Shown in pieces: positions 3,416 to 46,283 of a stretch of 64,000 nucleotides of DNA (position 1 is the stretch's first letter; every line of letters starts with the position of its first letter). The notes below the pieces were generated by a model. That model ran no database searches. It saw nothing but the letters and a program-made list of their open reading frames with translations, and was not told the DNA's origin. The position numbers and the translations under genes are program-made. The DNA is from an uncultured Spirochaetales bacterium (GTDB lineage: Bacteria; Spirochaetota; Spirochaetia; CAYRYS01), in assembly GCA_964428555.1 (NCBI GenBank), contig CAYRYS010000001.1:15653-79652 (forward strand), in the 5' to 3' direction.

Positions 3416-3637
3416 AGATTATCTTCCTTTATTTTCTTAGTATTTTTGGCAAAAAGCCTCGTTATATGAGAAAAATATTACAATTTTGCCTGGTTTTATC
3501 TAATTAATACATACCAGAGAATAATGGTCAAGGCAGGCCGGTGATCCATTGGAACCAGAGGATGATCATCATCCATATTAAAACAGGTGAAGTTCTTTAT
3601 CTTTCATAGATTTCGTGAATGTGCTACATTGTTTTTT

Positions 3638-4510
3638 ATGATAGCAGTAGTAGGTGCTTTATGCATGGATATTATCGCGAAAAAGGATTATTTTACTCCT
3701 GGTACCTCGAATCCTTCTTCTATTACTTTTGGACTCGGAGGGGTAGGGTATAATATTTTTCAGGGTATACAAGGGGAGAAGCGTTTTATTACCAACAGGA
3801 TAGAACCTGAGCAGCTGCTCTCTTTTTTTGGGGATGATGTAAACACAGAGGACATTGAGTTTTTGCCTGGCAAGAGTGTCAGACCTCCTGTGTACGTGGC
3901 ATTGATGGAGAAAGGACTTCTTCACATTGGTGCTTCAGATTTCTCTGACTTTGAGAGTACTCTCTCCGGGGCAGCGATAATCGACGCTTTGAACAGAATT
4001 GGAAAGCTGGATTTTCTTGTTCTAGACGGAAACCTGTCCTCTGAGGTTTTAAAAGAGGTCACAAATGCATTTTCTGATAAAGTGAAAATTGCCTTTGAGC
4101 CGATCTCTGTTGAAAAGGCTGTACGACATAGGGAGGGGGTATCAGGAGTGTTCCTTGCAACGCCCAGCACTGAAGAGCTCTGGGGCTTTATTGCAGGAGG
4201 TGTAACACCTGAGTCTATGGCAGGACCTCCGCCTGCGGCAAGCATTTTTCAGTATATGCAGAGGAATAAGATCCAGCATATTATCTGCACCCAAGGTCCA
4301 GAAGGTGTGACCTGGTATCATAAAGGGAAGATGGTGCACATGAAGCCTGAAAAGGTCCTTTCAGTACAGGACACAAATGGAGCAGGGGACAGACTCATGG
4401 GCAGACTAATAACCAATATCGCAAAAAATAAAGATGTAAGACTATCAATACAAATGGCACAAAAAGATACAGCCCAATATATTCAAGAGAGGAATGGGGA
4501 TGAAGGTTGA
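3638..4510 (+). CDS. psuK: PfkB-family carbohydrate kinase, probable pseudouridine kinase
   Basis: Ribokinase-family motifs (N-terminal GxxxxD region, DTNGAGD near the C-terminus). It overlaps the downstream psuG by 17 nt, the classical psuK-psuG arrangement. The track ORF starts at GTG 3587; ATG 3638 is more likely. Confidence 0.7.
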   Translation: MIAVVGALCMDIIAKKDYFTPGTSNPSSITFGLGGVGYNIFQGIQGEKRFITNRIEPEQLLSFFGDDVNTEDIEFLPGKSVRPPVYVALMEKGLLHIGASDFSDFESTLSGAAIIDALNRIGKLDFLVLDGNLSSEVLKEVTNAFSDKVKIAFEPISVEKAVRHREGVSGVFLATPSTEELWGFIAGGVTPESMAGPPPAASIFQYMQRNKIQHIICTQGPEGVTWYHKGKMVHMKPEKVLSVQDTNGAGDRLMGRLITNIAKNKDVRLSIQMAQKDTAQYIQERNGDEG

Positions 4511-5408
4511 TATACTCAGTGAGGTGAAAGAGGCACTTGCTAATAATAAGCCTGTTGTTGCACTTGAAAGTACTATAATTTCTCATGGAATGCCGTACCC
4601 GGATAACGTGAAAACAGCTTTGAATGCTGAAGCATTAATCCGCGAACAGGGGGCAGTTCCTGCAACAATCGCAATGCTATCCGGCAGGGTCTCCGTGGGA
4701 CTGACAGCAGACCAGATAGAGTATCTCGGAAAAACCGAGGGGGTTGTAAAGCTCTCCCGCAGGGACTTTCCTTATGCTGCAGCAAACCGCTTGGACGGAG
4801 CAACAACTGTGGCTGGAACAATGATCGCGGCACATGCGGCAGGAATCTCTGTTTTCGCGACAGGGGGTATCGGCGGTGTTCACAGGGGTGCTGAAAAAAC
4901 AATGGATATTTCAGCCGATCTGATAGAATTCTCAAGAACACCGGTTATGGTGGTTACCGCGGGTGCGAAGGCAATTCTAGACCTTCCTGCTACCATGGAA
5001 TACCTGGAAACCCAGGGAGTGCCCGTGGCAGGCTTTCAGACAGATGATCTGCCTGCTTTTTATTCACGGTTCAGCGGGGTGGAAGTTCCTTTCCGTGTAG
5101 ACTCACCGGAAGAAGCTGCAGCAATGTTTGCTCAGCAAAGGGAGTTCGGTTTTTCCCAGGGAATGGTGCTTGCAAACCCGATTCCAAAAAAAGATGAATT
5201 CCCCAGAGAAGAGGTTGACCGTTACATTGACCAGGCAATTCGTGAAATGGAAGAAAAAGGGATTCACGGCAAAGAAGTAACTCCCTACCTTCTTGCGCGG
5301 ATTGTAGAGCTCACAGAAGGAAAGTCCCTTTCAGTGAACATTAAGCTTTACGAGAACAACATCCTTCTTGCAGCAAAAACAGCAATCGCATTATGCGCAA
5401 GAGGCTGA
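4494..5408 (+). CDS. psuG: Pseudouridine-5'-phosphate glycosidase
   Basis: 304 aa. The N-terminus VALESTIISHGMPYPDN and overall similarity match the indigoidine synthase A-like / PsuG family. Confidence 0.85.
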   Translation: MGMKVDILSEVKEALANNKPVVALESTIISHGMPYPDNVKTALNAEALIREQGAVPATIAMLSGRVSVGLTADQIEYLGKTEGVVKLSRRDFPYAAANRLDGATTVAGTMIAAHAAGISVFATGGIGGVHRGAEKTMDISADLIEFSRTPVMVVTAGAKAILDLPATMEYLETQGVPVAGFQTDDLPAFYSRFSGVEVPFRVDSPEEAAAMFAQQREFGFSQGMVLANPIPKKDEFPREEVDRYIDQAIREMEEKGIHGKEVTPYLLARIVELTEGKSLSVNIKLYENNILLAAKTAIALCARG

Positions 5409-6364: not shown

Positions 6365-6584
6365 AAAGACACTCCTATCCGGATCTACTAATCATTTTAC
6401 GGTAAATTCCATGGCTGTCAATCTATTCAGTCAGGTGCCGGAGTTTTTTTCATTACAAATTACTTTATTTATAAAGACTCAGAAAACTAGCATATCTATA
6501 CCCATTATTAACTTATCTACTTTTCACTTTGACAGTGCAGTAAAAAAAAATTAAGATTGTGTAAAATAAATTTAAGGTTATGTT

Positions 6585-8414
6585 ATGAAAATGAAGAAAA
6601 ACCTTACATTCATTGGTGTGTTTAGTATTTCCGCGGGTGCTATGATCAGTTCTGGTATATTCATTTTACCTGGTGTTGCCTTTTCCAGGACAGGACCGGC
6701 TGTTATTCTCTCTTATGCGATGGCAGGAGGGTTCGCTTTAGTAGGAATACTTAGTGTTATTGAACTTGCCACAGCAATGCCGAAGGCAGGCGGTGACTAC
6801 TTTTTTATTCACAGAAGCCTTGGGCCAATGATCGGTACCGTGTCCGGATTAGTCGGATGGATTGCCTTGTCATTAAAAAGCGCTTTTGCAATATACGGAA
6901 TTGCTGAGACCCTTGAGCTGGTGTTTTCCATTGAACCGTACCTAACAATCATAATCTGCTGCATTGTATTTGTTATCATGAATTGTATCGGAGTTGAGTT
7001 TGAAAATATTTTTCAAAGTATTCTGGTAGCAGCACTTCTTTTTTTGCTTGGTGTGTTTATCGCAACAGGACTGCCTAATGTCCAGCTACAGCGGTATACC
7101 CCTTTTTTTGCTGAAAGTATAGAATCAGTTTTTATAACTGCCGGTTTTATTTTTATCTCTTTTGGGGGGCTGTTACAAGTTGCGAGCATTAGTGAAGAGG
7201 TCAAGGACTTAAAAAAAACACTTCCAGCTGCAATGGGACTTTCGGTTTTAGTAATAACCGTATTTTATGTGTTGATAGTTTTTGTTATTACCGGTGTTCT
7301 TCCTTCTGAGCACTTTTCCGGTGCTTCAACTCCGGTCATCGATTCTTCTGAGTTTTTCTTGGGAGCAGCAGGCTATTGGATAGTAACAATCGCGTCCCTT
7401 CTGGCCTTCGTTACTACAGCAAACGCGGGAATACTCGCTGCATCAAGATACCCGGTAGCTCTTGGAAGAGACTCCCTTTTACCTCAGTTCTTAGCCAAAA
7501 TAAGCAAGAACACAAATATACCGGTACGTTCGGTTGTTTTGACAGGCATCTTGATCTTTATATCGCTTTTATTACCTATTGAAACACTGGTGAAAGCTGG
7601 GTCAACTGTGGTCTTAACCTCTTTTGTTTTTACAAATGCCGCAGTTATTATTTTTAGGGAAGGCAGAGTTAGTAACTATAAACCAAGCTTTTCTGCACCT
7701 TTCTATCCATTTCTGCAGATTTTTTCCATACTTCTATTTTCTTTCTTCATTATCGCGCTTGGACTTGAATCAATCGAAATTAGTCTGGGACTACTGTTTT
7801 TTGCTCTTGGAGTATATTTCTTTTACGGCAGAAAAAACGAGGATAAAGAATACGCACTTCTTCATCTTGTTGAGCGGATAACAGAAGCAGATCTGACAAC
7901 CGGAGACCTGGAGTCTGAGCTTAAAGTAATTGTTCACAAGCGGGATGATGCAAAAAAACAGGTCCTTGATATATTAGTCCAGGAAGCAGAGGTTATGGAT
8001 ATAGACGGTCCTCTTGACCTGGATGAGTTCTTTTCGCTTGTGTCAAAACAGATTGAAAATAAAGTAACATTATCAGCAGATGAAATTAAGGACAAACTCA
8101 TGGAAACAGAGCGTGAATGTTCCACTGCAGTTTCCAATTCCTTTGCAATACCCCATATCATATTACAGGATGGAGAAAAGGAAATGCTCTTAGTTTTAGT
8201 ACGTTCCAGAAATGGTATACATTTTTCAGAAGAACGAAAGAATGTAAAGATCGTTTTCCTCTTTATCGGGAGTATAGAGGACAGGCAGAAATATCTGAAG
8301 GCAATTGCTTCAATTGCTTGTCTTGTGAAAAAAAGCGGATTTATGGATAATTGGATGGAAGCAGAAGATCCTGAAGCACTGCGTGAGCTTGTGATGGAAA
8401 GCTCCGTACATTAG
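6585..8414 (+). CDS. APC-superfamily amino-acid permease fused to a C-terminal PTS EIIA type-2-like domain
   Basis: About 12 TM segments over aa 1-430. A C-terminal domain of about 150 aa follows, with SFAIPHIILQ resembling the EIIA-2 phospho-His signature ([LIVM]-A-[LIVMF]-P-H). Confidence 0.7.
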   Translation: MKMKKNLTFIGVFSISAGAMISSGIFILPGVAFSRTGPAVILSYAMAGGFALVGILSVIELATAMPKAGGDYFFIHRSLGPMIGTVSGLVGWIALSLKSAFAIYGIAETLELVFSIEPYLTIIICCIVFVIMNCIGVEFENIFQSILVAALLFLLGVFIATGLPNVQLQRYTPFFAESIESVFITAGFIFISFGGLLQVASISEEVKDLKKTLPAAMGLSVLVITVFYVLIVFVITGVLPSEHFSGASTPVIDSSEFFLGAAGYWIVTIASLLAFVTTANAGILAASRYPVALGRDSLLPQFLAKISKNTNIPVRSVVLTGILIFISLLLPIETLVKAGSTVVLTSFVFTNAAVIIFREGRVSNYKPSFSAPFYPFLQIFSILLFSFFIIALGLESIEISLGLLFFALGVYFFYGRKNEDKEYALLHLVERITEADLTTGDLESELKVIVHKRDDAKKQVLDILVQEAEVMDIDGPLDLDEFFSLVSKQIENKVTLSADEIKDKLMETERECSTAVSNSFAIPHIILQDGEKEMLLVLVRSRNGIHFSEERKNVKIVFLFIGSIEDRQKYLKAIASIACLVKKSGFMDNWMEAEDPEALRELVMESSVH

Positions 8415-8440: not shown

Positions 8441-8677
8441 ATGAAAGAAGCCCGTGAACATTGTACATGCCAGGATACTACTTGTCCTGCCCATCCTGTG
8501 AATCATGAAAAAGGATGTTTCCCCTGTATACAGAAAAACCTGGTACACCGGGAGGTTCCCTCCTGCTTTTTTCTGGAGCTTACAGATACCTTGGAGAGGA
8601 GAAAAGATTTTTCCTACCATGCTTTTGCTGAATTAGTTTATGCAAAAGTAGCTAAAAAACCAGATCAATCGAAGTAA
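8441..8677 (+). CDS. Small cysteine/histidine-rich protein (possible metal-binding), hypothetical
   Basis: 78 aa. C8-x-C10-x4-C15-x-H17...H22...C26-x2-C29 cluster. No recognised family from memory. Confidence 0.35.
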   Translation: MKEAREHCTCQDTTCPAHPVNHEKGCFPCIQKNLVHREVPSCFFLELTDTLERRKDFSYHAFAELVYAKVAKKPDQSK

Positions 8678-9400: not shown

Positions 9401-10822
9401 GTGGTAAATAAAATTGTAGTCGGGACAGAGGAATGGTGTTCCCTGCCTGAAATGGGTATTCCTGCTATAAAGGCACGGATTGACTCAGGAGCTAAGACAT
9501 CATCAATCCACGCGGTAAATATACAAGCCTTTGAGCGAAATGGAGCGGAATGGGTAAGCTTTGAGGTACATCCATTGCAAAATAACAGAAAGACAGTGAT
9601 CCGCCATGAAGCCAAAGTCATTGACGTACGTGAGGTAAAAAACACAAGCGGAATTCCGGAAAAGCGGTACGTGATCCGGGAATTAATGAAGCTCGGTGAG
9701 GACTCCTGGGAAATAGAACTTACCCTGGCGAATAGAGACGCAATGGGCTTTAGAATGCTCCTTGGCAGGGAAGCCATGATTGAAAAGGTCCTTATTGATC
9801 CTTCAGGCAAAATGAACCTTACAGGGTATAATCCTACGCAGATACACCACATGTATGAACGGTATCAGGAGAATGAAAACGGTCTTCAAATAGGGCTATT
9901 AGCAAGCGACCCGGACCTTTACAGCAATAAACGGCTGATAGAAGCAGGAGAGGAACGGGGACACAAGGTCACATTCTTTAATATACGCCAGTGCTATATG
10001 AAGCTGGATCCCAAAAAACCTGAAGTACATTATAGGGGCGGTAATGTTCTATCCGAGCTTGACGCTGTAATCCCCAGAATTCGTCCGAGCATGACTTTTT
10101 ACGGATGCGCGGTTGTCCGTCAGTTTGAGTCAATGGGAGTTGCAACTTTAAATCGGGCTTCTGCAATTACTCAGTCCAGGGACAAGCTCTATGCTTCTCA
10201 GATGTTTGTAAAAGAGGGACTGCCAATGCCGTTAACCGGTTTTGCACATTCTCCACAGGACACAAATGACCTCATAGATGTAGTCGGCGGTGCACCGCTT
10301 ATAATTAAGCTGCTTGAAGGCACACAAGGTAAAGGCGTAGTTCTTGCTGAAACAAAAAAGGCATCACAGAGCGTAATAAATGCATTTAAAAGCCTGAACG
10401 CGAACCTGCTTGTTCAGGATTTCATAAAAGAGGCTGGGGGAAGTGATATCCGGTGTTTTGTAATTGGCGGAAAAGTGATTGCAGCTATTATGCGCCAGGC
10501 TGCTCCAGGGGAATACAGGGCAAACATTCACCAAGGCGGAAAGGCAAAGTATATTAAAATTACCGCTGAGGAGCGGAAGCTTGCAGTAAAGGCTACTAAG
10601 GTACTGGGCTTGGACGTAGCTGGTGTTGATATTATCCGTTCAGATGACGGGCCCATGCTCCTTGAGGTAAACTCCAGTCCCGGCTTAGAAGGAATTGAGA
10701 ATGCCACAGGGAAGGACATAGCAGGTATGATGATTATTGAACTTGAGAAGCGCCTTAACTGGAAACGCGTTCTAGCTGCAGAAGAGGAAACCTATAATTC
10801 TGTAGTTGAGAGTGCTGACTAA
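9401..10822 (+). CDS. rimK: Fusion of a RimB-like (DUF785, retropepsin-like 'ATP-dependent Zn protease' family) domain to a RimK-family ATP-grasp alpha-L-glutamate ligase
   Basis: The N-terminal ~140 aa ([31 protein letters not shown]) matches the RimK-associated protease-like family. The C-terminal ~300 aa is RimK ATP-grasp (…ANIHQGGKA…[31 protein letters not shown]). Confidence 0.8.
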
Positions 10823-23080: not shown

Positions 23081-23794
23081 ATGCGTATGAAAACAATAGG
23101 CCTTCTTGGCGGGATGACTTGGGAGTCAAGCCTTGAATACTACAGGATAATCAATAAAACAATACAGCAGGAGTTAGGCGGCGCAGCTTCTGCAGAAATT
23201 GTACTGTATTCCTTTAATTTTCAGAAAATAGCAGAAGCGCAAAGCAAAGAAGACTGGGGCGTATTGAAACAGAAGCTTGTGAATGCTGCTAAAAACTGCA
23301 AGCAAAGCGGTGCTGAATTTATTGTAATCTGTACAAATACAATGCATACGCTTGCAGAGGATATCGAGCTTTCCGCTGAAATACCTGTTTTTCACATAGC
23401 AGATACTGTGGGAGCTGCTGCCCAAAAACTGGATGTATCAAAAGTCGGTCTGTTGGGTACGCGGTTTACCATGGAGGAAGAATTTTACAAATCTAAACTT
23501 AAAAACACCTATAACATAGAGACTGTTATACCAGAGGAGATGCAAAGAAAAACGGTGAATTCGATTATATTTGATGAGCTCTGTAAAGGTATTAAGAACC
23601 CTGACTCAAAAATGAAGCTAATTGATGTGATAAATGGATTACAGTCTAAAGGGGCCCAGGCCATTGTCTTAGGTTGTACTGAGCTACCTTTTCTCATCTC
23701 TCAGGAAGATACCGGGTTGCCAGTAATTAATACAACTGAGCTGCATGCTTCCGCAGCAGCCCAATTTGCTTTAAAAAAACAAGCTGAAATTTAG
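23081..23794 (+). CDS. Aspartate/glutamate racemase family protein (aspartate racemase-like)
   Basis: N-terminus MKTIGLLGGMTWESSLEYY. A second catalytic Cys lies in LGCTELP. Confidence 0.8.
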   Translation: MRMKTIGLLGGMTWESSLEYYRIINKTIQQELGGAASAEIVLYSFNFQKIAEAQSKEDWGVLKQKLVNAAKNCKQSGAEFIVICTNTMHTLAEDIELSAEIPVFHIADTVGAAAQKLDVSKVGLLGTRFTMEEEFYKSKLKNTYNIETVIPEEMQRKTVNSIIFDELCKGIKNPDSKMKLIDVINGLQSKGAQAIVLGCTELPFLISQEDTGLPVINTTELHASAAAQFALKKQAEI

Positions 23795-24750
23795 TCAGCA
23801 AAAACAATCTCATCTTCACCTGATTCCTCGTCGTCATCACCGGATTCAGCACTTTCATTTTCTTGTGAATTTGAATCTTCTATAGTTTCTAATAATGCGT
23901 CGATATTAAGGGAGAAACCAATGCTTGACCTGAACATATAGAGTGCCTCAATCGGGTTTGCATCTATTAGATTGTTCATCCCGAAGGTGTAAACACTAGA
24001 ATTGAGATCAAGCTCTATCGAAAAAACAGGCATGGGTTCAACAGTAATTGTTGTGCCAAGCATTACTGAACCGAGTGTGTGTGAAATACTCGAGCTGACA
24101 AAAGTCCGGTCAAGCTGTTCATAGCCGAAGCTAAGCAGTATGCGGTAGGGGATGTTTTTCTGGTAAATATCGGTGTCAAAAGAATAATAGGTAAGACTAT
24201 CTACTACTTCTCCTGCATCGGTTTTTTGAGTAAAGCGGCGGGAATGAATATTTGCTGAACAGATTGCATTAGGAACATAAAAACCAAAGCTCACATCGCT
24301 TTGTTCCTGGATATAGTCGCCTGTCTGCACAAGTCTGCCTCCAATTGTGCTGTCTGCGCGAAAACTGGCGTATACAACCGCTGGAAGCTCTATCCTGACT
24401 TCTGTAGATATTCCGGAATTTAAGATTTGGTTCGCGGAATTGAAGAACCCGAAAAATGGACCGACCCCTATTTCGAAAAAGTCCTGGTTATAAAAAAGCC
24501 GAGTATAACTAATCCGTCTGTGGATTGAGTCATGGGCAAAGGAAGTTTCTACACTAAGCTCTTCAGAAAGCTCTTGGTTCATTGATCCTGAGAGACCCCA
24601 AAGAAATTCGTTTCCAGCAAAATCTAAAGCATCTGCTGCTCTATTGTTGTTAAACTTCAGGTTACCGACAGAAAAGTCCCCGCTTAACTCTATGGAAAAG
24701 GTATTGATTGAAATAAATATTAGAAATAATACTGCTAGTCTTCTATTCAT
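23791..24750 (-). CDS. Secreted beta-rich protein with acidic C-terminal tail (possible outer-membrane protein), paralog of the upstream gene
   Basis: Signal peptide. Alternating aromatic/hydrophobic pattern. C-terminal ESAESGDDDEESGEDEIVFAD. Its start lies 2 nt after the upstream stop. Confidence 0.45.
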   Translation of the reverse strand: MNRRLAVLFLIFISINTFSIELSGDFSVGNLKFNNNRAADALDFAGNEFLWGLSGSMNQELSEELSVETSFAHDSIHRRISYTRLFYNQDFFEIGVGPFFGFFNSANQILNSGISTEVRIELPAVVYASFRADSTIGGRLVQTGDYIQEQSDVSFGFYVPNAICSANIHSRRFTQKTDAGEVVDSLTYYSFDTDIYQKNIPYRILLSFGYEQLDRTFVSSSISHTLGSVMLGTTITVEPMPVFSIELDLNSSVYTFGMNNLIDANPIEALYMFRSSIGFSLNIDALLETIEDSNSQENESAESGDDDEESGEDEIVFAD

Positions 24751-24752
24751 AA

Positions 24753-25853
24753 TTAGAATCCTGACCGGATGCCGACAAAAAATTCAAATAGACTGCCGAT
24801 TGAGAAGGGGTATAGTTGGCTGTTTATCTTAAAATCCCAAAATACTCCTGCACCGACAAAGGAGAAGTAGGGAGACACCCGAATATTCAGCATTTCTGTT
24901 TCATCTGTCAAATAGCTTAACCCAGCTTCAATACCGCCCTCAGCTGTAGATTCAGGGCCTGCACCGAACAAGAAATTTACATTCACATCAATTGACCCTT
25001 CTTCATTCGTTGCTTCCTGCAGATAGTAGGATGGATGAACAAATACTGTCAAAATTATAGATAGGATATTAATCCTTACCCGTGGTTCAAACATAAAATA
25101 GAACAAATCCATATTAAAAGGATCTGTATATGGATCCCATCGAGGTATGCCTATTTGAGTAAAAAACTCACCGCCGATTCCGGTAGAGTAATACAGTAGA
25201 AGACCGCCTCTGTACACACCCCAGTTACCCTGTGGGTAAGAAGCGCCGGCAAATGCCTCAAGTTTGAAAACAGGGAAATTAATTGCTGCACGCAAGTCAG
25301 CGGAAAACTCACCGGGGTTCAGATATCCGTCCTGGTATAGTGACAAGCTTCCATAAAAATGGTTTGCAAGTGTTGTGGTAGAAAGCTCAATGCCTGAGCC
25401 TGCAATGCTGTGTATACCATCGTATTGGATACCATCACCAAAATACATTAATCCCCTAAACCGGCTGGTTATTGGCTCAGTGCCGAACAGTTCAGGGAAT
25501 AGGCTCCCTGACAGATATGGATCCATTTGTCCAACAAAATAGGAAAAATTGATGGGCAGGGAAAAGATTTCCCGGATAATAATACTTAAAGAACGGAAAC
25601 GGAGAAAATTATCTGTATCAATATTATCTAAGGAGCTTCCTGAAAAATCCAGACCTATTCTGCCGCCGAATTTATAACCGCCCTCTATCAAAAAATTGAT
25701 GTTTCCTAGGGTAGAAAGCACCAAGGAACCGTTTTCTATTTGTCCGCGTGTATTTATTTCTAGATCCGGAATACTTAAATTGGCGGAATAGACCGGAAAA
25801 ACAGAAAGTGTGATTAATAATATAACAATAAATAGAAATTTATTTCTTACCAT
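24753..25853 (-). CDS. Secreted beta-rich protein, putative outer-membrane beta-barrel (C-terminal Phe)
   Basis: Signal peptide (…SVFPVYSAN), a G/Y/F-rich alternating pattern, and a terminal ...GIRSGF. GGGAG SD. Confidence 0.45.
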   Translation of the reverse strand: MVRNKFLFIVILLITLSVFPVYSANLSIPDLEINTRGQIENGSLVLSTLGNINFLIEGGYKFGGRIGLDFSGSSLDNIDTDNFLRFRSLSIIIREIFSLPINFSYFVGQMDPYLSGSLFPELFGTEPITSRFRGLMYFGDGIQYDGIHSIAGSGIELSTTTLANHFYGSLSLYQDGYLNPGEFSADLRAAINFPVFKLEAFAGASYPQGNWGVYRGGLLLYYSTGIGGEFFTQIGIPRWDPYTDPFNMDLFYFMFEPRVRINILSIILTVFVHPSYYLQEATNEEGSIDVNVNFLFGAGPESTAEGGIEAGLSYLTDETEMLNIRVSPYFSFVGAGVFWDFKINSQLYPFSIGSLFEFFVGIRSGF

Positions 25854-25942: not shown

Positions 25943-26602
25943 TTATAAAACCTCTGGTTTGGCATTGAGCCTCTGTATTATATATCGTGCTAAACTATGT
26001 CTATCTTTATTCACAAAGCTTGTGAAATTGACTGCAACAAAGCGTTTTCTTTTATTTACAATGTAACCGGAAGGTTCGATTTGACCTGTTGCCATAGTAA
26101 TGGTTATCGGATTTATTCGAGTACCTGTGTCAATTACCGAAAGGTCTGAAACATTCAGCAATTCCGCTGCAAAGCCTCCTAAACTTATATCAATAACCTT
26201 TCCGATAATCTTTTTCTTCTGCTTCTTATCATCATAGTGTACACGCATAAGTTCGTTTCTGTCCGGTTTTACACGGACATGTTTTCTCATATCATTGGTT
26301 TTAGGCAGCTTTTCTGCAAGTTTTTTGATGAATCCAGTTACAGCTTCATGGGAGGATGCCTTTTTTAGTGTTTTTCTTTCTCCGGTTTCTGTTTGAGCCT
26401 TTTCTGTAATTATTATTGAGCTTCCCTCTATTTCTGAATTCTTAACCTCATCGGCGAAGACTTCATCAATAAAAACAACCTGATAATTGTTCAAATTTTC
26501 CGGAGTATTTTCAAAAAAATACGGTTCAATACCGTTTTCAAGTAATAAGATAGACAGCTCGGAAAGAAACTGGTCCATGCTGCCGAGGATAGCACATTTC
26601 AT
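25943..26602 (-). CDS. PilZ-domain protein (putative c-di-GMP receptor, two-domain PlzA-like layout)
   Basis: The C-terminal half contains RKHVRVKP (RxxxR) and DISLGGFA (DxSxGG). AAGGAG SD. It is divergent from cheA. Confidence 0.6.
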   Translation of the reverse strand: MKCAILGSMDQFLSELSILLLENGIEPYFFENTPENLNNYQVVFIDEVFADEVKNSEIEGSSIIITEKAQTETGERKTLKKASSHEAVTGFIKKLAEKLPKTNDMRKHVRVKPDRNELMRVHYDDKKQKKKIIGKVIDISLGGFAAELLNVSDLSVIDTGTRINPITITMATGQIEPSGYIVNKRKRFVAVNFTSFVNKDRHSLARYIIQRLNAKPEVL

Positions 26603-26726: not shown

Positions 26727-26907
26727 GGCTGGGTGGAATTTACCTGAAGAATATTGTTCTAACCAGACTGGTTTCTGCTGAATTATACCTCTTAAAACTA
26801 GAAGTGCAGGAATTACTGAAATCAATGCTTTAGAGATAATGGAAATTCGGTATACAAAGCAATTTATACTTGACTTAAGTCTGGTTATATATATGATTAA
26901 ATTTGAA

Positions 26908-29331
26908 ATGAGTGATTATCTAGACCCTAATAACGAAGAACTATTAAAAGATTTTTTTATGGAAGCCCAGCTGCAGATTGACGCTCTGGAGCAGAATATT
27001 CTCGTTTTAGAGAATGATCCGGGCAATGGCGACGCAGTGGATGAAATATTCAGGGCTGCACATACACTAAAAGGGGCTGCTGCAACTGTCCAGATGATGG
27101 AGCTTGCTGAATTTACACACCTGCTTGAAGATGTTCTCGACGAGATTAGAAGCGGGAAAGTAAAGACTGATACTGCTTTAGTGGATACCCTTTTAGAAGG
27201 TATAGATGTAACCAAAGCCATGCTTCAGGCAAGGATGAATGGAGAAGTCTATTCCGGGGATATAACTCAAGTGCAGGATTCCTTGAATAATCTTCTCCCT
27301 GGGGCAAAACAAAAAGATGTAGCTTCTAAGCAGAAACAGGCCGCACCTGCGAAGAAAGCTTTCCCTGCAACAGCCCAAGAACCTGCAAGTGATGAGCAGG
27401 GGATATCTGAGTACGAGCTCTTGGAGATGAAGGAAGCAGCTGATTCGGATGCACCGATACTTCAGGTCACTGTTTATTTTAATGAGGATCATCCCATGAA
27501 TACAGTGGGAGGCATCCAGGTCTTTGCTGCACTAAAAGATCTTGGGAAAATACTGAAAACAGATCCTGAGTTTGAGATGCTCTATGAAGATAATTTTTAT
27601 GAAAATGTGAAATATTTTATTGCATCAGATAAAGACGCTAGTGAGATTCGCAAAAGAGTCTTTATTCCGGATGTAACTACAGATATCATTGTTACTGATA
27701 TAACCTCAGGCAGTTTTCCTACAAGGCAAAAACCACAGGCAAAACCAAGGAAACAGGAGGTTTCCCAGCAGGAACTGGATAAGGTAGCTGCTCAGCTGAA
27801 ATCAGCAAAAACTGAGAAACCTGAGAAGCAGAAAGAAACTCCAAAGCCTTCTGTTACTGACAACGTGGAAGAGCCTGCAGAGAAAACTCCGCCAAAGGAT
27901 GTTGCAAAAAAAACAGCAAAAGAACCGTCCAAGCAAAAGGTTTCAAGTTCCATTTTGCGAGTTGACTCAAGCAGAATAGATAATCTTCTCAATTTGGTAA
28001 CCGAGACAGTTATTATTAAAGCAACATTTAATCAGATAAGCTCTCAGTTTGCTGATGATCTATCCGATTTTCAGACAACCCAATCTGAATACAGGGATGA
28101 TATTCGAGAACTATTTGATTCTCTTCCAGAGTATCTTGAAGCAATTAAAGAGGGTAAATCTATAAAAGAGGTGAAACGTGAACTCTTGGACAGGTATGGT
28201 AATATATTCAATCTGTTTGATACTTTCGAAGGAAAGCTCAAGAATACCGTTTCTAAATTTAGAGGCACTGCACAGAACCTTGGAAGGATAACCGGCGATC
28301 TCCAAGAAGGTGTCATGCGCATCAGAATGGTGCCGATATCCCAGATATTCTCCAGGTTTCCCAGACTTGTGCGTGATCTTTCTAAAACCCTTAAAAAGAA
28401 TATTAACCTCAATATTGAAGGTGAGGATACTGAACTTGATAAGTCGGTAATTGAAGACCTTCTAGATCCTCTCATCCATTGTGTGAGAAATTCTATTGAT
28501 CATGGAATTGAGTCGCCTGAGGAACGGAAAGAGGCGGGTAAGCCGGAAGAAGGCCAGGTGTATCTAAAGGCTTCTAATGAAGGAAATATGATCCTCATTG
28601 AAATATCGGATGACGGAAAGGGAATCGATGTTGAATCCATTCGGAAAAAAGCAATAAACCGCGGGCTGATACATCCCAACAAAAAACTGACAGATATCGA
28701 AGCCTTTAATATGATATTTGAGCCTGGTTTCTCCACTGCCAAAAATGTAACTAATATTTCCGGACGGGGAGTAGGCTTAGATGTTGTAAAAAAACAGATT
28801 GAAAAGCTTAATGGCTCTGTGAGTGTATGGTCTGAAAAGGGAATCGGTACCAGGATGACTATTAAGCTTCCTTTGACCCTTGCAATAATTCAGGGTTTAT
28901 TGGTACGGGTTGGAAAAGAGATATACGCAATTCCTATTGCTTCTATTGTTGACAGTCACCGTATAAAGCCCAGTGAAATTAAGCTCATCGATAATTATGA
29001 AGTCTTCAATGTAAGAGACGATGTAGTTTCACTCATCAGACTAAACAGACTGTTCAAGATCCCATCTTCAGAGCAGGGGGATTATAAATTTGTGGTAATC
29101 GTTGGAAGCGGAGATAAGAAGATGGGACTTATGGTAGACTCCTTAATTGGAGAAGAGGATGTGGTAATTAAGCCGCTGAAAGATCAGTACACAAATTCTC
29201 CGGGTATTGCCGGTGCTACGATACTTGGGGACGGCACTGTTTCTCTTATTATAGATGTTAGTCAGCTTCTTGACCTTGGGCTTAGAAAAGAATTGGAAAA
29301 GCGTAAGAGCAGAGAAGCAACGATACAGTAA
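26908..29331 (+). CDS. cheA: Chemotaxis histidine kinase CheA
   Basis: Hpt (HTLKGAAAT), a long K/P/E-rich linker, a dimerisation domain, an HATPase_c domain (DDGKGID, GRGVGLDVV) and a C-terminal CheW-like domain. The likely start is MSDYLDP at 26908; the track starts at 26839. Confidence 0.9.
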   Translation: MSDYLDPNNEELLKDFFMEAQLQIDALEQNILVLENDPGNGDAVDEIFRAAHTLKGAAATVQMMELAEFTHLLEDVLDEIRSGKVKTDTALVDTLLEGIDVTKAMLQARMNGEVYSGDITQVQDSLNNLLPGAKQKDVASKQKQAAPAKKAFPATAQEPASDEQGISEYELLEMKEAADSDAPILQVTVYFNEDHPMNTVGGIQVFAALKDLGKILKTDPEFEMLYEDNFYENVKYFIASDKDASEIRKRVFIPDVTTDIIVTDITSGSFPTRQKPQAKPRKQEVSQQELDKVAAQLKSAKTEKPEKQKETPKPSVTDNVEEPAEKTPPKDVAKKTAKEPSKQKVSSSILRVDSSRIDNLLNLVTETVIIKATFNQISSQFADDLSDFQTTQSEYRDDIRELFDSLPEYLEAIKEGKSIKEVKRELLDRYGNIFNLFDTFEGKLKNTVSKFRGTAQNLGRITGDLQEGVMRIRMVPISQIFSRFPRLVRDLSKTLKKNINLNIEGEDTELDKSVIEDLLDPLIHCVRNSIDHGIESPEERKEAGKPEEGQVYLKASNEGNMILIEISDDGKGIDVESIRKKAINRGLIHPNKKLTDIEAFNMIFEPGFSTAKNVTNISGRGVGLDVVKKQIEKLNGSVSVWSEKGIGTRMTIKLPLTLAIIQGLLVRVGKEIYAIPIASIVDSHRIKPSEIKLIDNYEVFNVRDDVVSLIRLNRLFKIPSSEQGDYKFVVIVGSGDKKMGLMVDSLIGEEDVVIKPLKDQYTNSPGIAGATILGDGTVSLIIDVSQLLDLGLRKELEKRKSREATIQ

Positions 29332-29351
29332 CCGCGGAAGAAGAGGAATTT

Positions 29352-30674
29352 ATGGCCCAACAAAAAATAGAAAACGTACATGAGGAGATCCGGGAAGAAC
29401 AGGTTGAAGTCATTGATTTTAAGATGGTGACATTCGCCCTTGCAGGTAAGGACTATGGTATTGATATCATGAAAGTGAAAGAAATATCCAAGTCTAACAA
29501 ATTCACCTATGTTCCTAACACAGCTCCCTTTGTTAGGGGAGTACATAACCTTCGCGGAGACATTATATCAATCATTGACCTACGGACAATGTTCCATCTG
29601 CCTGCTGAGCAGAAAAAAGACACAGAGCTTGAAAACATGCTTATACTCCGTATGTATGATCATATTCTCGGCATAATAGTGGACTCTATAGACAAGGTAG
29701 TAGGGGTTTCAAAAGCCTCTATCCAGCCGCCTCATCCCATATTTGGAGACATAAATATTAAATATATCAGCGGTGTGGTTGAGAATAACAACAGGCTCTA
29801 TATAATTCTGGATGTGGACCGGATATTTAGCAAGGAAAAGGATGAGAAAGAGCAGAAAAACGTATTTGAAGATGTAGAACAAGCTATGCAGACAGAGATG
29901 GGGGACGAGGAAGAGAGCAGGGAAGAAGATATCGACCTAAGCTTTATTGCTGAAAACCTGTCTACTTTTAAGAATTTTCATTTATCCTCTTTGAACCACG
30001 ACTGGATGCTTTCCAGATACCAGGAGTGGAAGAACCAGCGTGCTAGCCGGGGAGCGGATCTGCAGCTAAAAAGCGTAGAAGAGGCTGAAGAATACCTGGA
30101 ACCCTTTTATTCTTCCTATACAGGAAGGCTCTGGGGAAAAGATCTCATGGAAGCATATAAAGATATTTTACCGGATGTAAAAGGGAATACCGTTACTGTC
30201 TGGAACTGCGGAAGCGGAAAAGGGTATGAAACCTATTCATTTGCCTGTGTGCTGAAGGAACGGTATCCGGAAAAGAGAATAAAAATCTATGCAAACGATG
30301 TAGACCTCCTGAGTATTTCAACAGCCCCGAGCCTTGTGCTTCAGGAAAATGAAGTACCTGAAAACTTCGATAAGTATGTACGGTCTACGAAAAACGGGTT
30401 AGTATTTAACGACGAAATAAAAGAAATGATTCTGTTTGAATATCACGATATTCTTAATGGAAATGCCTATTCCATGGTTGACTTTATTATCGCTCGGGAT
30501 GTACTTTCTTTTGTGAATGTAAAAGATCAGAAACGGCTGCTCTCTGAATTTAATGAAAAACTCAAAAAACAGGGGCTGCTATTTCTTGGTGAAAATGAAA
30601 AAATTACTGAACCAGATGCCTGGACAGAGGTTAGGAATAATAAAATTGTTGCGTATAAAAAGCAAAGTGAATAA
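29352..30674 (+). CDS. CheW coupling domain fused to CheR-like SAM methyltransferase domain
   Basis: An N-terminal CheW domain of about 160 aa. The C-terminal part carries the CheR signature VWNCGSGKGYETYSFACVL plus FDFIIARDVLSF. Confidence 0.85.
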   Translation: MAQQKIENVHEEIREEQVEVIDFKMVTFALAGKDYGIDIMKVKEISKSNKFTYVPNTAPFVRGVHNLRGDIISIIDLRTMFHLPAEQKKDTELENMLILRMYDHILGIIVDSIDKVVGVSKASIQPPHPIFGDINIKYISGVVENNNRLYIILDVDRIFSKEKDEKEQKNVFEDVEQAMQTEMGDEEESREEDIDLSFIAENLSTFKNFHLSSLNHDWMLSRYQEWKNQRASRGADLQLKSVEEAEEYLEPFYSSYTGRLWGKDLMEAYKDILPDVKGNTVTVWNCGSGKGYETYSFACVLKERYPEKRIKIYANDVDLLSISTAPSLVLQENEVPENFDKYVRSTKNGLVFNDEIKEMILFEYHDILNGNAYSMVDFIIARDVLSFVNVKDQKRLLSEFNEKLKKQGLLFLGENEKITEPDAWTEVRNNKIVAYKKQSE

Positions 30675-30726
30675 TATTTGATAGGAATTTGTAATAAACA
30701 GCTATGGTCGACAAGGAGTTTTAGAC

Positions 30727-31191
30727 ATGAGAGTTGAATATATCAATCCTTTTGTTGAAGCAGCATTTAATGTTTTAAAAGAAGTGTTAGATGCCGATAT
30801 TGAGAGAGGGGAGCTATTTCTGAAGTCAGCATCGCAGCCCGTACTCGGAGTTGCAGCAATTGTTGGACTCGCAGGCGATGTGGAAGGTCGGGTTTTATTT
30901 GATATGACATCCGATACAGCATTAAAGGTCGCCTCCGAGATGAATGGAGAAGAGTTGGGTTCCCTGGATGATTTAGCCAAAGCTACAATTACGGAGCTTG
31001 CTAATATGATTACTGCCCAGGCTGTTACTAAGCTGCATGAACTGGGTTTTCAATTTGACCTTACTCCACCGGCACTGATTACTGGAGAAAACATGGAGGT
31101 ATCTGACCCTCAAGTTGAGGCTTTGATCGTACCCATGGATCTTCCATACGGTAAAGTGGAAATAAATGTTGCAATTAGAGAAAGGGCATAG
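30727..31191 (+). CDS. cheX: CheX (CheC-family CheY-P phosphatase)
   Basis: 154 aa. N-terminal INPFVEAAFNVLKEVL and overall CheC/CheX-like composition. Confidence 0.8.
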   Translation: MRVEYINPFVEAAFNVLKEVLDADIERGELFLKSASQPVLGVAAIVGLAGDVEGRVLFDMTSDTALKVASEMNGEELGSLDDLAKATITELANMITAQAVTKLHELGFQFDLTPPALITGENMEVSDPQVEALIVPMDLPYGKVEINVAIRERA

Positions 31192-31203
31192 AGAGAGGCG
31201 CTT

Positions 31204-31659
31204 ATGAAAACTAAGATGGATTTTCCAAGCATAAATGAAAGAAATCCTGACGGGATGAAAGAAGACGGCACTCCATTCAGAGTGTTAATAGTAGATGACT
31301 CAATGTTTGTTACAAAACAGATAGGGCAGATCCTCAGTTCAGAAGGGTTTGAAATTGTAGGGACAGCTGCTGACGGGCAGGAAGGTCTTGAGAAATACAA
31401 AGAATTGTATCCGAATGTGGATCTGGTAACAATGGACATTACTATGCCGAAAATGGATGGAGTTACATCCTTAGAAAAGATCATCGAATTTGATAAAAAC
31501 GCCAAGGTCATTATGATCAGTGCACTGGGTAAGCAGGATCTTGTGAAAAAGTCTCTGCTCCTAGGTGCGAAAAACTATATAGTTAAGCCTTTAGACAGAA
31601 AAAAGGTACTAGAGCGCGTTGTTATGACACTGACCGGTGTAAAACCGCCTGAGGAGTAA
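31204..31659 (+). CDS. cheY: Chemotaxis response regulator CheY
   Basis: Receiver domain with RVLIVDDS, the DITMPKMDG phospho-Asp and a conserved Lys. Confidence 0.85.
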   Translation: MKTKMDFPSINERNPDGMKEDGTPFRVLIVDDSMFVTKQIGQILSSEGFEIVGTAADGQEGLEKYKELYPNVDLVTMDITMPKMDGVTSLEKIIEFDKNAKVIMISALGKQDLVKKSLLLGAKNYIVKPLDRKKVLERVVMTLTGVKPPEE

Positions 31660-31734: not shown

Positions 31735-31808
31735 GGGCGGCTAGCTCAGTTGGTTAGAGCACTAGCTCGACACGCTAGGGGTCGCTGGTTCGAATCCTGC
31801 GCCGCCCA
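31735..31808 (+). tRNA. tRNA, probably tRNA-Val (anticodon GAC)
   Basis: Hand-folded cloverleaf. Acceptor GGGCGGC/GCCGCCC, D-arm GCTC-AGTTGGTTA-GAGC, anticodon arm CTAGC-TCGACAC-GCTAG, T-loop TTCGAAT. CCA is not encoded. The anticodon-loop reading places C at position 33, so the isotype needs tRNAscan confirmation. Confidence 0.75.
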
Positions 31809-41716: not shown

Positions 41717-43027
41717 ATGCGAATAACAGATATTATTGCAAAAAAACAGCACGGTAAAACCCTTACTAAAGAAGAGATAGACTTTTTCTTGAAAGGATAT
41801 GTTAAAGGTGATATTCCTGACTATCAGGCAGCAGCATTGATGATGGCTGTTTGGTTCCAGGATATGGATAGCCGTGAAACCACGGATTTGACATTGTCCA
41901 TGGCTGCTTCAGGAGACCAGATAGACCTTTCAGCTATTGAAGGAATAAAGGTTGATAAACATTCAACAGGAGGAGTTGCAGATACAACCACTTTGATTGT
42001 TGCTCCACTTGTTGCAGCATGCGGCGGAAAGGTAGCCAAAATGTCAGGCCGCGGGCTTGGGCACACAGGGGGCACTTTAGATAAGCTTGAATCCATTCCC
42101 GGGTTCAATGTTAATCAGACTATGGATCGTTTTGCAGAGATTGTGCGTATCTGCGGGCTTTCTATAATTGGACAAACTGCGGATCTTGTCCCTGCAGATA
42201 AAAAGCTCTATGCCCTTAGGGATGTAACATCCACTATTGACAGCATACCGCTTATAGCATCCTCTATAATGAGTAAAAAAATTGCAGCAGGAAGCAATGC
42301 AATTGTTCTGGATGTAAAAACAGGGTCAGGGGCCTTTATGCAGGAACCTGAGGAGTCAAAGAAACTCGCACAGCTAATGGTTAAAATCGGCGCGCTTGCA
42401 GGAAGAAAAACTATGGCTTTGGTAACAGATATGAGCCAGCCCCTGGGAATGGCAATCGGTAATAGCATAGAAGTCCGGGAAGCAGTGGAAATCCTGCAAG
42501 GAGAACACTCTGAAAGGGCGCTTCGATTCGTTTCCTTTTCTCTCGCTGCCCAGATGCTTATACTCTCTGGACTCTACACAGATGAATCTACTGCACAGCT
42601 TGCATTGGAAAATGCTGTTGAGGATAGGAGCGGACTTGCTAAATTCGCTGAAATGATAGAAATGCAGGGTGGAGATCCGAAAATATGCGAAGATGTAACA
42701 AGACTTCCCAAAGCAGAAGAAGAGGTCTCAATAAAGGCACAGAAAAGCGGATACATCGGTTCCATGGACACTGCTGCAATCGGTACAGCTGCACAGATGC
42801 TTGGTGCAGGTAGAGCGAAGAAAGAAGATACGATTGATCCTGCTGTAGGAATATGGATGAAGCAGCGATTAGGCAGTCCTGTTGAAAAGGGTGATGAGAT
42901 TGCTGTATTTCATGTTAATGACCGGAACAATTTTGAAGAATCAAAGCAGCGTTTTCTGGATGCAGTTCAAATAAAAAATACCCCAGTAAAAAAACCGAAA
43001 TTAGTGTACGCAAAAATACAAGAATAA
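41717..43027 (+). CDS. pdp: Pyrimidine-nucleoside (thymidine) phosphorylase
   Basis: N-terminal ITDIIAKKQHGKTLTKEEIDFFLKGY and the DKHSTGGVAD phosphate-binding motif. Confidence 0.85.
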   Translation: MRITDIIAKKQHGKTLTKEEIDFFLKGYVKGDIPDYQAAALMMAVWFQDMDSRETTDLTLSMAASGDQIDLSAIEGIKVDKHSTGGVADTTTLIVAPLVAACGGKVAKMSGRGLGHTGGTLDKLESIPGFNVNQTMDRFAEIVRICGLSIIGQTADLVPADKKLYALRDVTSTIDSIPLIASSIMSKKIAAGSNAIVLDVKTGSGAFMQEPEESKKLAQLMVKIGALAGRKTMALVTDMSQPLGMAIGNSIEVREAVEILQGEHSERALRFVSFSLAAQMLILSGLYTDESTAQLALENAVEDRSGLAKFAEMIEMQGGDPKICEDVTRLPKAEEEVSIKAQKSGYIGSMDTAAIGTAAQMLGAGRAKKEDTIDPAVGIWMKQRLGSPVEKGDEIAVFHVNDRNNFEESKQRFLDAVQIKNTPVKKPKLVYAKIQE

Positions 43028-43111
43028 TCTAATAGGCTAGTGTCTAACGTTTTGTAAAAACTATAAAACTGCTAATATATGTTTTACATATTAAATAATT
43101 AAGGAGATTTT

Positions 43112-43780
43112 ATGAATTATACAAAAACAAAAGTCGCATCTATGATCGACCATACAGCACTTAAAGCTGTTACAACTTTGGCGGATGTTAAAAAACTATG
43201 TGATGAAGCAAAAGAGCACGGATTTGCATCTGTATGTGTTAATCCCGCATATATATCTTTTGTTGCAAATGAGCTCAAAGGCTCTAATGTGCTTACCTGC
43301 TCTGTAATCGGGTTTCCCCTGGGAGCAAATACCCCTGAGATAAAGGCGAAAGAGACAGAAACTGCTGTTTCCGAAGGCGCGCAGGAAGTTGACATGGTAA
43401 TTAATGTAGGCGCATTAAAAAGCGGCGACATGGAAGCAGTGCTCAAAGATATAAAGGCTGTTGTGGATGCTTCAGGAAATGCTGAAGTTAAAGTAATTAT
43501 CGAGACATGTTATCTTACTGATGATGAAAAGGTCTCGGTGTGTAAGCTTGCAAAGCAGGCTGGTGCAGATTTTGTAAAAACCTCTACAGGCTTTGGTACA
43601 GGAGGAGCAACTGCTGAAGATGTAAAACTTATGAAAGCAGCTGTTGAAGGCACCCTGAAAGTAAAGGCTTCAGGGGGGATCCGAACAGCGGAAGATGCAA
43701 ATGCAATGCTTGAGGCTGGTGCAGACCGGATAGGAGCTAGTGCAGGTATCGCAATTATTGAAGGATTCCCAGCAGAATAA
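43112..43780 (+). CDS. deoC: Deoxyribose-phosphate aldolase
   Basis: 222 aa. VCVNP, Schiff-base Lys context (FVKTSTGF) and a typical DeoC length. Confidence 0.85.
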
Positions 43781-43793
43781 TTTGGAGTAGAAT

Positions 43794-44972
43794 ATGCGTG
43801 TTTATACACTGGTAATTGATAGTTTTGGGATTGGAGCTCTTCCGGATGCGGAGAATTACGGAGACAAAGGGGCTAACACAGCGCTGCACATCTGCGAAGC
43901 AGTTTCTTCAGTGCGGTGGAACAATTTAAAAGCCTTGGGACTGGGCAATGCCTCAGAACTGCTCGGAAATCCGCTTCCCGGGTGCGGTGCAATTGAGGAT
44001 CCTTTGGGCTGTTACGGTGTAATGAAAGAAGTTTCTCCCGGAAAAGACACCACAACCGGTCACTGGGAAATTGCAGGTGTACACCTTGATAAGCCGTTTT
44101 TCACTTTTCCACCTGATTATCCCTCATTCCCAGAGGAACTTCTTGATGAGTTTACTGCACGGACAGGCAGAGGAGTTCTTGGAAATAAAGCTGCTTCTGG
44201 TACAGTCATTATTCAGGAACTCGGGGATGAACATGTAAGAACCGGAAAACCAATTGTCTACACCTCAGCAGACTCTGTATTTCAGATTGCAGCACATGAA
44301 GATATAATTTCAGTTAAGGAACTCTATGAAATGTGCGAGATAGCCCGTGAACTGTGTGATCCGTATCAGGTTGCCCGGGTTATAGCGCGTCCATTTGTTG
44401 GAGAAAGCGGTAATTATACACGGACACCAAGGCGTCATGATTACAGCATTCAGCTTCCGGAGAAATCGATTATGGGCTATCTTCAGGATAAGGGTGTCCG
44501 GACAATAGGGGTTGGAAAAATCGGGGATATTTTCAATATGCAGGGTATTGACATCACCTATCCTGAAAAGGGAAATCCTGCGTGTATTAAAAAAACACTG
44601 GAGCTTATCAGCACTGAAGCAAGGGGCGATGAATTTGTTTTTGTAAATCTTGTGGACACTGACATGGTGTACGGCCACAGGCGTGATCCGAAGGGGTATC
44701 ATGATTCTGTTGCAGAAACAGATGAAGCTATTGGGGAGATGTTAGGATTAATGGGTAAGGATGATTTACTCATCATAACAGCAGACCATGGATGTGATCC
44801 TACATACAAAGGATCTGATCATACCAGAGAACATGTGCCCCTGCTTTTTTACGGAAAAAGAGCGGGAAACTCATCCCTGGGTGTCCGGGAAAGCTTTGCT
44901 GATATAGCTGCAACTGTTGCCGATGTTTTTGGTATAAGTGAATATAAGAAGGGGGAAAGTTTTCTTGTCTAA
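43794..44972 (+). CDS. deoB: Phosphopentomutase
   Basis: N-terminal VIDSFGIGALPDA and metal-binding Asp/His blocks (TADHGCDP). 392 aa. Confidence 0.85.
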   Translation: MRVYTLVIDSFGIGALPDAENYGDKGANTALHICEAVSSVRWNNLKALGLGNASELLGNPLPGCGAIEDPLGCYGVMKEVSPGKDTTTGHWEIAGVHLDKPFFTFPPDYPSFPEELLDEFTARTGRGVLGNKAASGTVIIQELGDEHVRTGKPIVYTSADSVFQIAAHEDIISVKELYEMCEIARELCDPYQVARVIARPFVGESGNYTRTPRRHDYSIQLPEKSIMGYLQDKGVRTIGVGKIGDIFNMQGIDITYPEKGNPACIKKTLELISTEARGDEFVFVNLVDTDMVYGHRRDPKGYHDSVAETDEAIGEMLGLMGKDDLLIITADHGCDPTYKGSDHTREHVPLLFYGKRAGNSSLGVRESFADIAATVADVFGISEYKKGESFLV

Positions 44973-45098
44973 GATTACTTATTCTTTGAAAGTTAATCAT
45001 CTTTTTACTTGACACCGGATATTTCTCAAGATATGGTAAAATGTTAATGTATAGCACTATGATTACAGATCATAAAAATATGAAAAGGAGAAGAGGGT

Positions 45099-46235: not shown

Positions 46236-46252
46236 GTCCGCCTAATTATAAA

Positions 46253-46283
46253 AAGCGGGATGAAAGCCATCCCGCTTTTTTTA
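46253..46283 (+). terminator. Rho-independent terminator after the BMP gene
   Basis: GCGGGATG-AAAGC-CATCCCGC hairpin followed by T7. Confidence 0.65.

Follow-up and report, generated by a model that had tools for sequence, protein, structure and literature searches.

An APC-type permease with a fused EIIA(Ntr)-type domain in an uncultured Spirochaetales bacterium: architecture, family and possible phosphotransferase control

Components of the phosphoenolpyruvate (PEP)-dependent phosphotransferase system (PTS) can act on secondary transporters. LacS of Streptococcus thermophilus is a secondary carrier whose C-terminal IIA domain is phosphorylated by HPr~P, and only the phosphorylated form affects the carrier (PMC8154325). 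The enzyme IIA (EIIA) protein PtsN regulates the transporters TrkA and YcgO by its phosphorylation state: free, unphosphorylated PtsN binds and inhibits the CPA1 antiporter YcgO at its cytoplasmic region, and phosphorylation weakens this binding (PMC11808508). Here we describe a gene from an uncultured Spirochaetales bacterium, located in a 64-kb stretch of contig CAYRYS010000001.1 (assembly GCA_964428555.1; the whole stretch is called the window below), that encodes a 609-aa protein composed of an APC/SLC7-type permease, a linker and an EIIA(Ntr)-type domain. This protein joins a secondary transporter to a PTS IIA regulatory domain, both of types different from those of LacS.

In function, the nearest precedent is LacS, which likewise has a PTS IIA domain at the C-terminus of a secondary transporter; through phosphorylation of a His, that domain regulates the carrier to which it is attached. 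LacS combines, however, a GPH/MFS-type carrier with a glucose-type IIA domain (PTS_EIIA_1, an unrelated fold), whereas the window protein matches neither family (in particular, Pfam found no glucose-type IIA, PF00358, in it) and joins an APC carrier to a type 2 domain. The hosts differ as well: LacS is found in lactic acid bacteria, the fusion in anaerobic Spirochaetota, Cloacimonadota, members of the Planctomycetota-Verrucomicrobiota-Chlamydiota group and others. The likeness to LacS would be architectural and mechanistic only. PtsN (E. coli; 1A6J, 2A0J, 3URR, 4GQX) shares with the window domain a common fold and an A-I-P-H phospho-His motif, and the fusion family keeps the PtsN residues R57, H73 and H120. 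PtsN differs in being free-standing (~160 aa) and typically encoded in the rpoN cluster, whereas the window domain is tethered to its presumed target and has an additional conserved helical linker and specific motifs of its own. The structurally characterised carriers GkApcT, ApcT, BasC and AdiC share the LeuT/APC fold of 12 transmembrane (TM) helices and align with the window permease over its full length at 20-25% identity, but are without a cytoplasmic regulatory domain. Finally, transporters of the SLC4 family (band 3/AE1, AE2, NDCBE and BTR1) likewise carry an EIIA-type fold as a cytoplasmic regulator of a secondary transporter; their domains differ in being N-terminal and larger, in sitting on another transporter fold, and in having neither phospho-His chemistry nor a sequence-level Pfam match.

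Domain organisation and family of the permease-EIIA protein

The gene is a complete open reading frame (ORF) on the + strand (6585-8414, ATG start, stop codon included), exactly as delimited in a first-pass annotation of the window, which had read the product as a full APC-type permease followed by a cytoplasmic EIIA type 2-like domain of about 150 aa. The identical protein at NCBI is recorded as 'MAG: amino acid permease [Spirochaetia bacterium]' (MAG, metagenome-assembled genome), and the N-terminal residues M1, L3, K4 and K5 are kept among homologs.

The permease domain occupies residues 1-416 (6585-7832, + strand). It matches the Pfam families AA_permease_2 (PF13520; residues 7-398, E 3.2e-39, 135.5 bits against a cutoff of 27) and AA_permease (PF00324; 119.4 bits against a cutoff of 24.6). 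A phmmer search of the PDB aligned it end-to-end, over residues 4-419, with GkApcT, a 12-TM bacterial CAT homolog (6f34/5oqt, E 5e-32), with remoter matches to plant CAT4, BasC, LAT1/2, xCT, AdiC and ApcT. In the full-length AlphaFold2 (AF2) model (mean pLDDT 78, pTM 0.64), the membrane part is mostly predicted at pLDDT 80-90. Foldseek matched this model to GkApcT (6f34) with an E-value of 2.5e-17 and a target-normalised TM-score of 0.80, and superposition of the permease on GkApcT, LAT1, BasC and AdiC gave target-normalised TM-scores of 0.79-0.82. These matches bear out the earlier description of a complete permease with about 12 TM helices. The TM1 motif S-S-G-I-F is invariant across the fusion family. 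None of the NCBIfam equivalog or subfamily cutoffs was reached (the best scores being 184 bits against 557 for TIGR00909 and 162 against 690 for BcaP) and the substrate therefore cannot be named; it is most likely an amino acid.

The C-terminal domain (residues 459-609; 7959-8411, + strand) belongs to the PTS EIIA type 2/EIIA(Ntr) fold. It matches Pfam PTS_EIIA_2 (PF00359) well above the cutoff (residues 485-603, E 7.2e-17, 62.1 bits against 27), and its best phmmer matches in the PDB are PtsN proteins. A separate model of residues 458-609, built with 18 homolog segments, reached a pLDDT of 90.7 and a pTM of 0.87. Foldseek searches with this model ranked PtsN/EIIA(Ntr) crystal structures first (3urr, 1a6j, 2a0j and 4gqx; E 4e-10 to 1e-8, TM-score 0.78-0.83, root-mean-square deviation 2.1-2.8 Å), followed by the eukaryotic SLC4 cytoplasmic regulatory domains (NDCBE, 5jho, E 1.6e-7; BTR1, AE2 and band 3) and then by EIIA(Fru/Mtl). 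The EIIA identity proposed for the tail from its sequence is thus confirmed by profile and structure. TrkA_C and universal stress protein, two other folds considered for this domain, were ruled out, having no Pfam support where the EIIA(Ntr) fold was found instead. The domain is PtsN-like and not a PtsN ortholog: it is fused, it scores below the PtsN equivalog cutoffs and the window encodes no RpoN homolog. We regard the assignment of the two parts, permease and EIIA type 2, as nearly certain.

The length of about 150 aa first given for the cytoplasmic region holds for the EIIA core (about residues 459-609) but not for the region as a whole, as the core is preceded by a conserved juxtamembrane linker of ~40 aa (residues 417-458; 7833-7958, + strand). 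The linker contains the motifs EYALLHL..RI and LE.EL...I..RD; in the homolog alignment E445 and R453 are invariant, while conservation reaches 90% or more at E422, A424, L425, L426, H427 and I432, and its overall conservation is on par with that of the permease and EIIA domains. It is predicted to be helical by AF2 (helices 424-433 and 441-453), at low confidence (pLDDT <50 at 434-457), and may be a coupling element.

The family was examined in three sets: the 120 closest listed homologs (48-64% identity), 150 domain representatives clustered at 50% identity and 87 genome copies. Both Pfam domains are present in all 120 listed homologs, of which 119 are 600-650 aa long, and the 87 genome copies come from more than 80 independent genomes, among them closed chromosomes and genomes of cultured strains. 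When GTDB was scanned with a single representative genome for each species, at least 512 of these genomes proved to encode a relative, and the best 80 loci among them all cover residues ~1-604 or more. The carriers, mostly uncultured anaerobic species, span about a dozen phyla: Spirochaetota, Cloacimonadota, KSB1, Zixibacteria, Planctomycetota, Kiritimatiellota (Pontiella), Lentisphaerota, Fusobacteriota (Propionigenium maris DSM 9537 and Psychrilyobacter), Fibrobacterota, Elusimicrobiota, Bacteroidales, Armatimonadota and Marinimicrobia. The view that this architecture is uncommon, expressed in the first-pass annotation, has therefore to be abandoned, the more so since JGI has already given several of these proteins an automatic product name that covers both parts ('amino acid transporter/mannitol/fructose-specific phosphotransferase system IIA component (Ntr-type)'); the fusion is known from automatic domain annotation. 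A full-text search found no experimental or descriptive paper on an APC permease-EIIA fusion within the literature searched. Paired permease-EIIA paralogs, in tandem or close to each other, occur in two Sphaerochaetaceae loci (L045 and L047), one of Fibrobacterota (L072) and one of Bacteroidales (L065).

The EIIA domain also occurs behind other proteins. The C-terminal 190 aa, searched alone against 1.84 billion representatives, gave 956 matches at E <=1e-3 and 257 at E <=1e-10. The best 150 matches comprise 80 permease fusions (full or fragmentary), 31 EIIA domains alone or with a short N-terminus and 39 proteins with other N-termini. Pfam analysis of ten matches placed this cassette behind Na_H_Exchanger-TrkA_N(-TrkA_C), Pro_CA-TrkA_N and an ATP-synthase alpha/beta subunit (representatives P0182, P0231, P0241, P0255, P0206, P0204 and P0167), always in C-terminal position and with E-values of 1e-18 to 1e-24 to the window domain. 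In these Na+/H+ exchanger-TrkA, carbonic anhydrase-TrkA and ATP-synthase fusions the cassette is alike and the N-terminal effector domains differ from the permease. They carry an Arg-His-His/Tyr triad at the PtsN positions together with shared signature motifs that, in the alignment, distinguish the cassette from free PtsN (D-x-FD, RC-K/R-x-G, W-L-x-A and a basic tail). In one of the Na+/H+ exchanger fusions and in the ATP-synthase fusion, the cassette follows a segment resembling the linker. Only one representative has the ATP-synthase fusion (732 aa), which might result from an error of gene calling. To our knowledge, none of these three kinds of fusion has been characterised. The presence of the cassette on Na+/H+ exchanger-TrkA proteins echoes the known targets of PtsN.

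The phospho-histidine position and possible regulation in cis

Using E. coli PtsN (from NC_000913.3; triad R57/H73/H120) as the alignment reference, the three active-site residues correspond to T508, H524 and Y570 of the window protein. The SFAIPHIILQ segment (residues 519-528), in which the first reading of the sequence had recognised a phospho-His signature, does place its His at the expected position: H524 (codon 8154-8156, + strand), the putative phospho-acceptor, aligns with PtsN H73 and is also equivalent in position to H65 of IIA(Mtl). The active-site Arg position is occupied by T508 (codon 8106-8108, + strand) and that of the second active-site His by Y570 (codon 8292-8294, + strand); all three codons were verified.

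The phospho-acceptor position is a His in 120/120 closest homologs, 87/87 genome copies and 145 of the 150 representatives, and H524 lies within an A-x-P-H core that is invariant among homologs. Arg is found at the R57 position in 115/120 closest homologs and 139/150 representatives, and His at the H120 position in 118 of the 120 closest homologs; among the representatives, 121 have His and 20 have Tyr at the latter position, Arg loss being less frequent than this Tyr replacement. The full R-H-H triad is present in 230 of 271 aligned domains and in 76 of the 87 copies in species-representative genomes. Such family-wide retention argues for selection on phosphoryl chemistry and not on the fold alone. 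The nearest relatives of the window protein (64% and 62% identity, from KSB1 and Cytophagia MAGs) have the triad R-H-N, and the window copy is the sole T-H-Y combination found. Since Tyr recurs at the H120 position, it looks like a tolerated variant, and R510, two residues after T508, might compensate for the missing Arg. Of the three active-site residues of the PtsN type, the window copy nevertheless retains the phospho-acceptor His alone, so that its competence for phosphorylation is less certain than its motif implies.

We consider it somewhat probable that HPr or NPr phosphorylates H524 and in this way gates transport in cis. PEP-charged Enzyme I (EI) would pass its phosphoryl group to soluble HPr/NPr, which would reversibly phosphorylate H524; the phosphorylation state would change the contact of the EIIA domain and the helical linker with the cytoplasmic side of the permease, and this change would act as an on-off switch for transport. 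The uptake of amino acids would then be coupled to the PEP/pyruvate or nitrogen status of the cell. Such control would be the counterpart, within one polypeptide, of the action of free PtsN on K+ transporters and would resemble that of the fused IIA domain in LacS. In a copy with T508 and Y570, phosphotransfer might be slower or otherwise altered. We judge this mechanism to be the most economical because it has two experimentally studied precedents, LacS and PtsN-YcgO; the PTS(Ntr)-like control of amino-acid uptake suggested in the first-pass annotation is, as such, something that we infer.

A genomic link of the fusion to a phosphorelay was found in Pontiellaceae. In the cultured Pontiellaceae bacterium B1224 (locus L043), a complete EI (E 2.5e-81 to E. 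coli EI, with the PEP-utilisers_N, mobile and C domains all present) divergently adjoins the permease-EIIA ortholog. Upstream, in the same cluster (L043:4397-11839), are genes for a Zn_ribbon_9-EIIA protein (281 aa) and for a diadenylate cyclase with an N-terminal EIIA domain (EIIA-DacZ_P-DAC, 449 aa), and the same two genes are again found beside the ortholog of Pontiellaceae bacterium B12219 (L056:6398-11830). The EI adjacency is the only direct genomic link of the fusion to a phosphorelay, and the EIIA-DacZ_P-DAC cluster suggests a possible PTS control of cyclic di-AMP (c-di-AMP) synthesis. Phylogenomic work (PMC2405797) describes a 'regulatory' EI in organisms devoid of PTS sugar transporters, namely Planctomycetes, Chlorobia, Chlamydiales and, among spirochaetes, Leptospira; in Planctomycetes and Leptospira it forms a chain with HPr. 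The same work reports ptsH and HPrK for Fusobacterium, and a phosphorelay is therefore plausible in the lineages that carry the fusion.

Several observations weigh against this mechanism. Some concern the window copy itself: Thr and Tyr replace the PtsN-type Arg and His, a one-residue insertion just past the phospho-His (Q528) is unique to it, and it is one of only two copies in which both flanking positions are changed, the other being one of the two paralogs of L065, with the divergent triad E-H-Q. Its domain also remains far below the NCBIfam PtsN equivalogs (26.3 bits against 138.7 for TIGR01419; 24.3 against 221 for NF008145), and the full-length AF2 model gives no confident arrangement of the EIIA domain relative to the permease (pTM 0.64, linker pLDDT <50) and is uninformative on the position of H524 relative to the permease. 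Others concern the missing relay. As already stated in the first-pass annotation, no other PTS component was found in the window. Searches by tblastn used HPr, EI, Crr, PtsN, NPr, RapZ and RpoN of E. coli and HPr of B. subtilis, and gave nothing below E 0.3; HPr and EIIA profiles run on the six-frame translation detected no further PTS gene, the best HPr match (E 0.13) being noise; and Pfam found nothing PTS-like among the otherwise unidentified ORFs, in searches that included no dedicated HprK or EIIB/C profiles. Among 83 homolog neighbourhoods (1.15 Mb in total) EI is present in one only, and no HPr was found in them with a weak three-sequence profile. Clustering of 1164 neighbouring ORFs from 82 loci yielded no family present in more than eight loci; there was neither an operonic partner nor a hint to the substrate.

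The first alternative, which we hold to be rather unlikely, is that the EIIA-like domain of the window copy is no longer a phospho-acceptor and now works without phosphorylation, in allosteric control, in sensing a ligand or pH or as a scaffold, like the EIIA-fold domains of SLC4 transporters. The altered flanking residues and the insertion beside the His would fit this explanation, as would the lack of PTS genes in the window and their near absence from the homolog neighbourhoods. The ranking of SLC4 domains just after PtsN in the Foldseek search likewise indicates that an EIIA fold can regulate a transporter without phosphorylation, and the His has been lost in 5 of the 150 representatives (~3%). 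However, H524 has been retained in the invariant A-x-P-H core, and the R-H-H retention throughout the family is hard to account for without phosphoryl chemistry. The Tyr variant, seen in 20 of the 150 representatives, resembles a tolerated alternative more than decay, and R510 could possibly stand in for the Arg.

According to a second alternative, the fusion would be a transceptor, with information flowing from the transporter to the PTS: the conformational cycle of the permease would set the phosphorylation state of the EIIA domain, which would drain phosphoryl groups from HPr/EI or return them and thus signal amino-acid supply to other EIIA-domain proteins. The Pontiellaceae ortholog, clustered with EI, EIIA-DacZ_P-DAC and Zn-ribbon-EIIA, offers several EIIA outputs that would share one relay, and in sugar PTSs the phosphorylation of EIIA is known to report transport flux. 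This cluster was, however, found in one family only (L043 and L056). We view the transceptor as quite improbable; it and the gating of transport by phosphorylation of H524 are not mutually exclusive. A third reading, in which misassembly or faulty gene calling merged two adjacent genes, has nothing in its favour except the origin of the sequence from a MAG; it was rejected as next to impossible in view of the continuous frame, the conserved linker and the ~610-aa architecture shared by 120/120 top homologs and the 87 genes from independent genomes.

Gene context and other features of the window

The permease-EIIA gene is preceded by a Shine-Dalgarno-like AAGG (6574-6577, + strand, read directly from the sequence) 7 nt 5' of its ATG. 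A consensus scan detected a promoter-like, sigma-70-like site (6529-6557, + strand; TTGACA-17-TAAGAT, 10/12 consensus matches) that ends 28 nt 5' of the start codon, within the 220-nt gap between the permease gene and a divergent gene for a WG-repeat protein (PF14903), likely a lipoprotein. This site is only suggestive, the number of sites found by the scan not being above that in shuffled sequences. An Rfam scan of the whole window for riboswitches or other leaders yielded a single family above threshold, a tRNA gene (RF00005, 64 bits; 31735-31808, + strand).

A Cys-rich ORF of 78 aa with a DUF6485 domain (8441-8677, + strand) begins 27 nt past the permease stop. No terminator-like site was found between the two, and the sole nearby terminator-like hairpin (8549-8565) falls within the DUF6485 ORF, which may be co-transcribed with the permease gene; it is not conserved as a neighbour of permease-EIIA genes in other genomes. 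Pfam analysis of the surrounding genes identified PfkB and Indigoidine_A genes upstream, and an alpha/beta hydrolase and a RimK gene downstream, beyond DUF6485. The upstream pair (3587-5408, + strand), just upstream of the permease gene, is pseudouridine kinase/glycosidase-like. The RimK-type ATP-grasp ligase (9401-10822, + strand), three genes downstream of the permease, has an N-terminal RimB-like domain (PF05618).

Elsewhere in the window, a second set of nucleoside salvage/catabolism genes (41717-50110, + strand) reads as encoding a pyrimidine-nucleoside phosphorylase, DeoC, a phosphopentomutase, a Bmp lipoprotein and an ABC transporter; among the nucleoside genes, PfkB, Indigoidine_A, DeoC, Metalloenzyme, Bmp and ABC_tran have a Pfam basis and the others were read from their translations. 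A 261-aa ORF with a HisKA_2 domain (50116-50901) adjoins the gene of a 701-aa secreted-looking repeat protein (50924-53029, - strand), for which the only match was a weak one to the pre-peptidase C-terminal (PPC) domain. A CheA/CheW-CheR/CheY chemotaxis cluster (26839-31659) was recognised by eye from translations only. Just upstream of it, two adjoining ORFs of 319 and 366 aa (23791-25853, - strand) gave no Pfam match at E <=0.01; they lie beside a weak PilZ-like ORF (25943-26602).

Meaning for the family

Taken alone, the window copy is a modest and somewhat degenerate member of a machine-annotated family, and the picture at the level of the family is more interesting. One could tentatively imagine, though we think it doubtful, that the portable linker and EIIA(Ntr) cassettes are the outputs of a broad, unrecognised network, in which an EI/HPr relay would act in cis on amino-acid permeases, Na+/H+-K+ exchangers, carbonic anhydrase, an ATP-synthase subunit and a c-di-AMP cyclase, in anaerobic phyla without a sugar PTS; the permease fusions would perhaps also be transceptors feeding back on the relay.

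The targets of the regulatory (nitrogen-related) PTS outside Proteobacteria are poorly understood, and those of PtsN have mostly been found singly, by genetics. Where a PtsN-like domain is covalently joined to its target, the fusion itself tells what that target is. The Na+/H+ exchanger-TrkA sister fusions would in this respect provide independent, fusion-based support for the connection between PtsN and K+ transport in E. coli, and the permease fusion would offer a tractable single-polypeptide system for studying how EIIA(Ntr) gates a LeuT-fold transporter. For the bacteria themselves, amino-acid fermenters of sediments and digesters, the fusion would tie the uptake of amino acids to PEP or nitrogen status.

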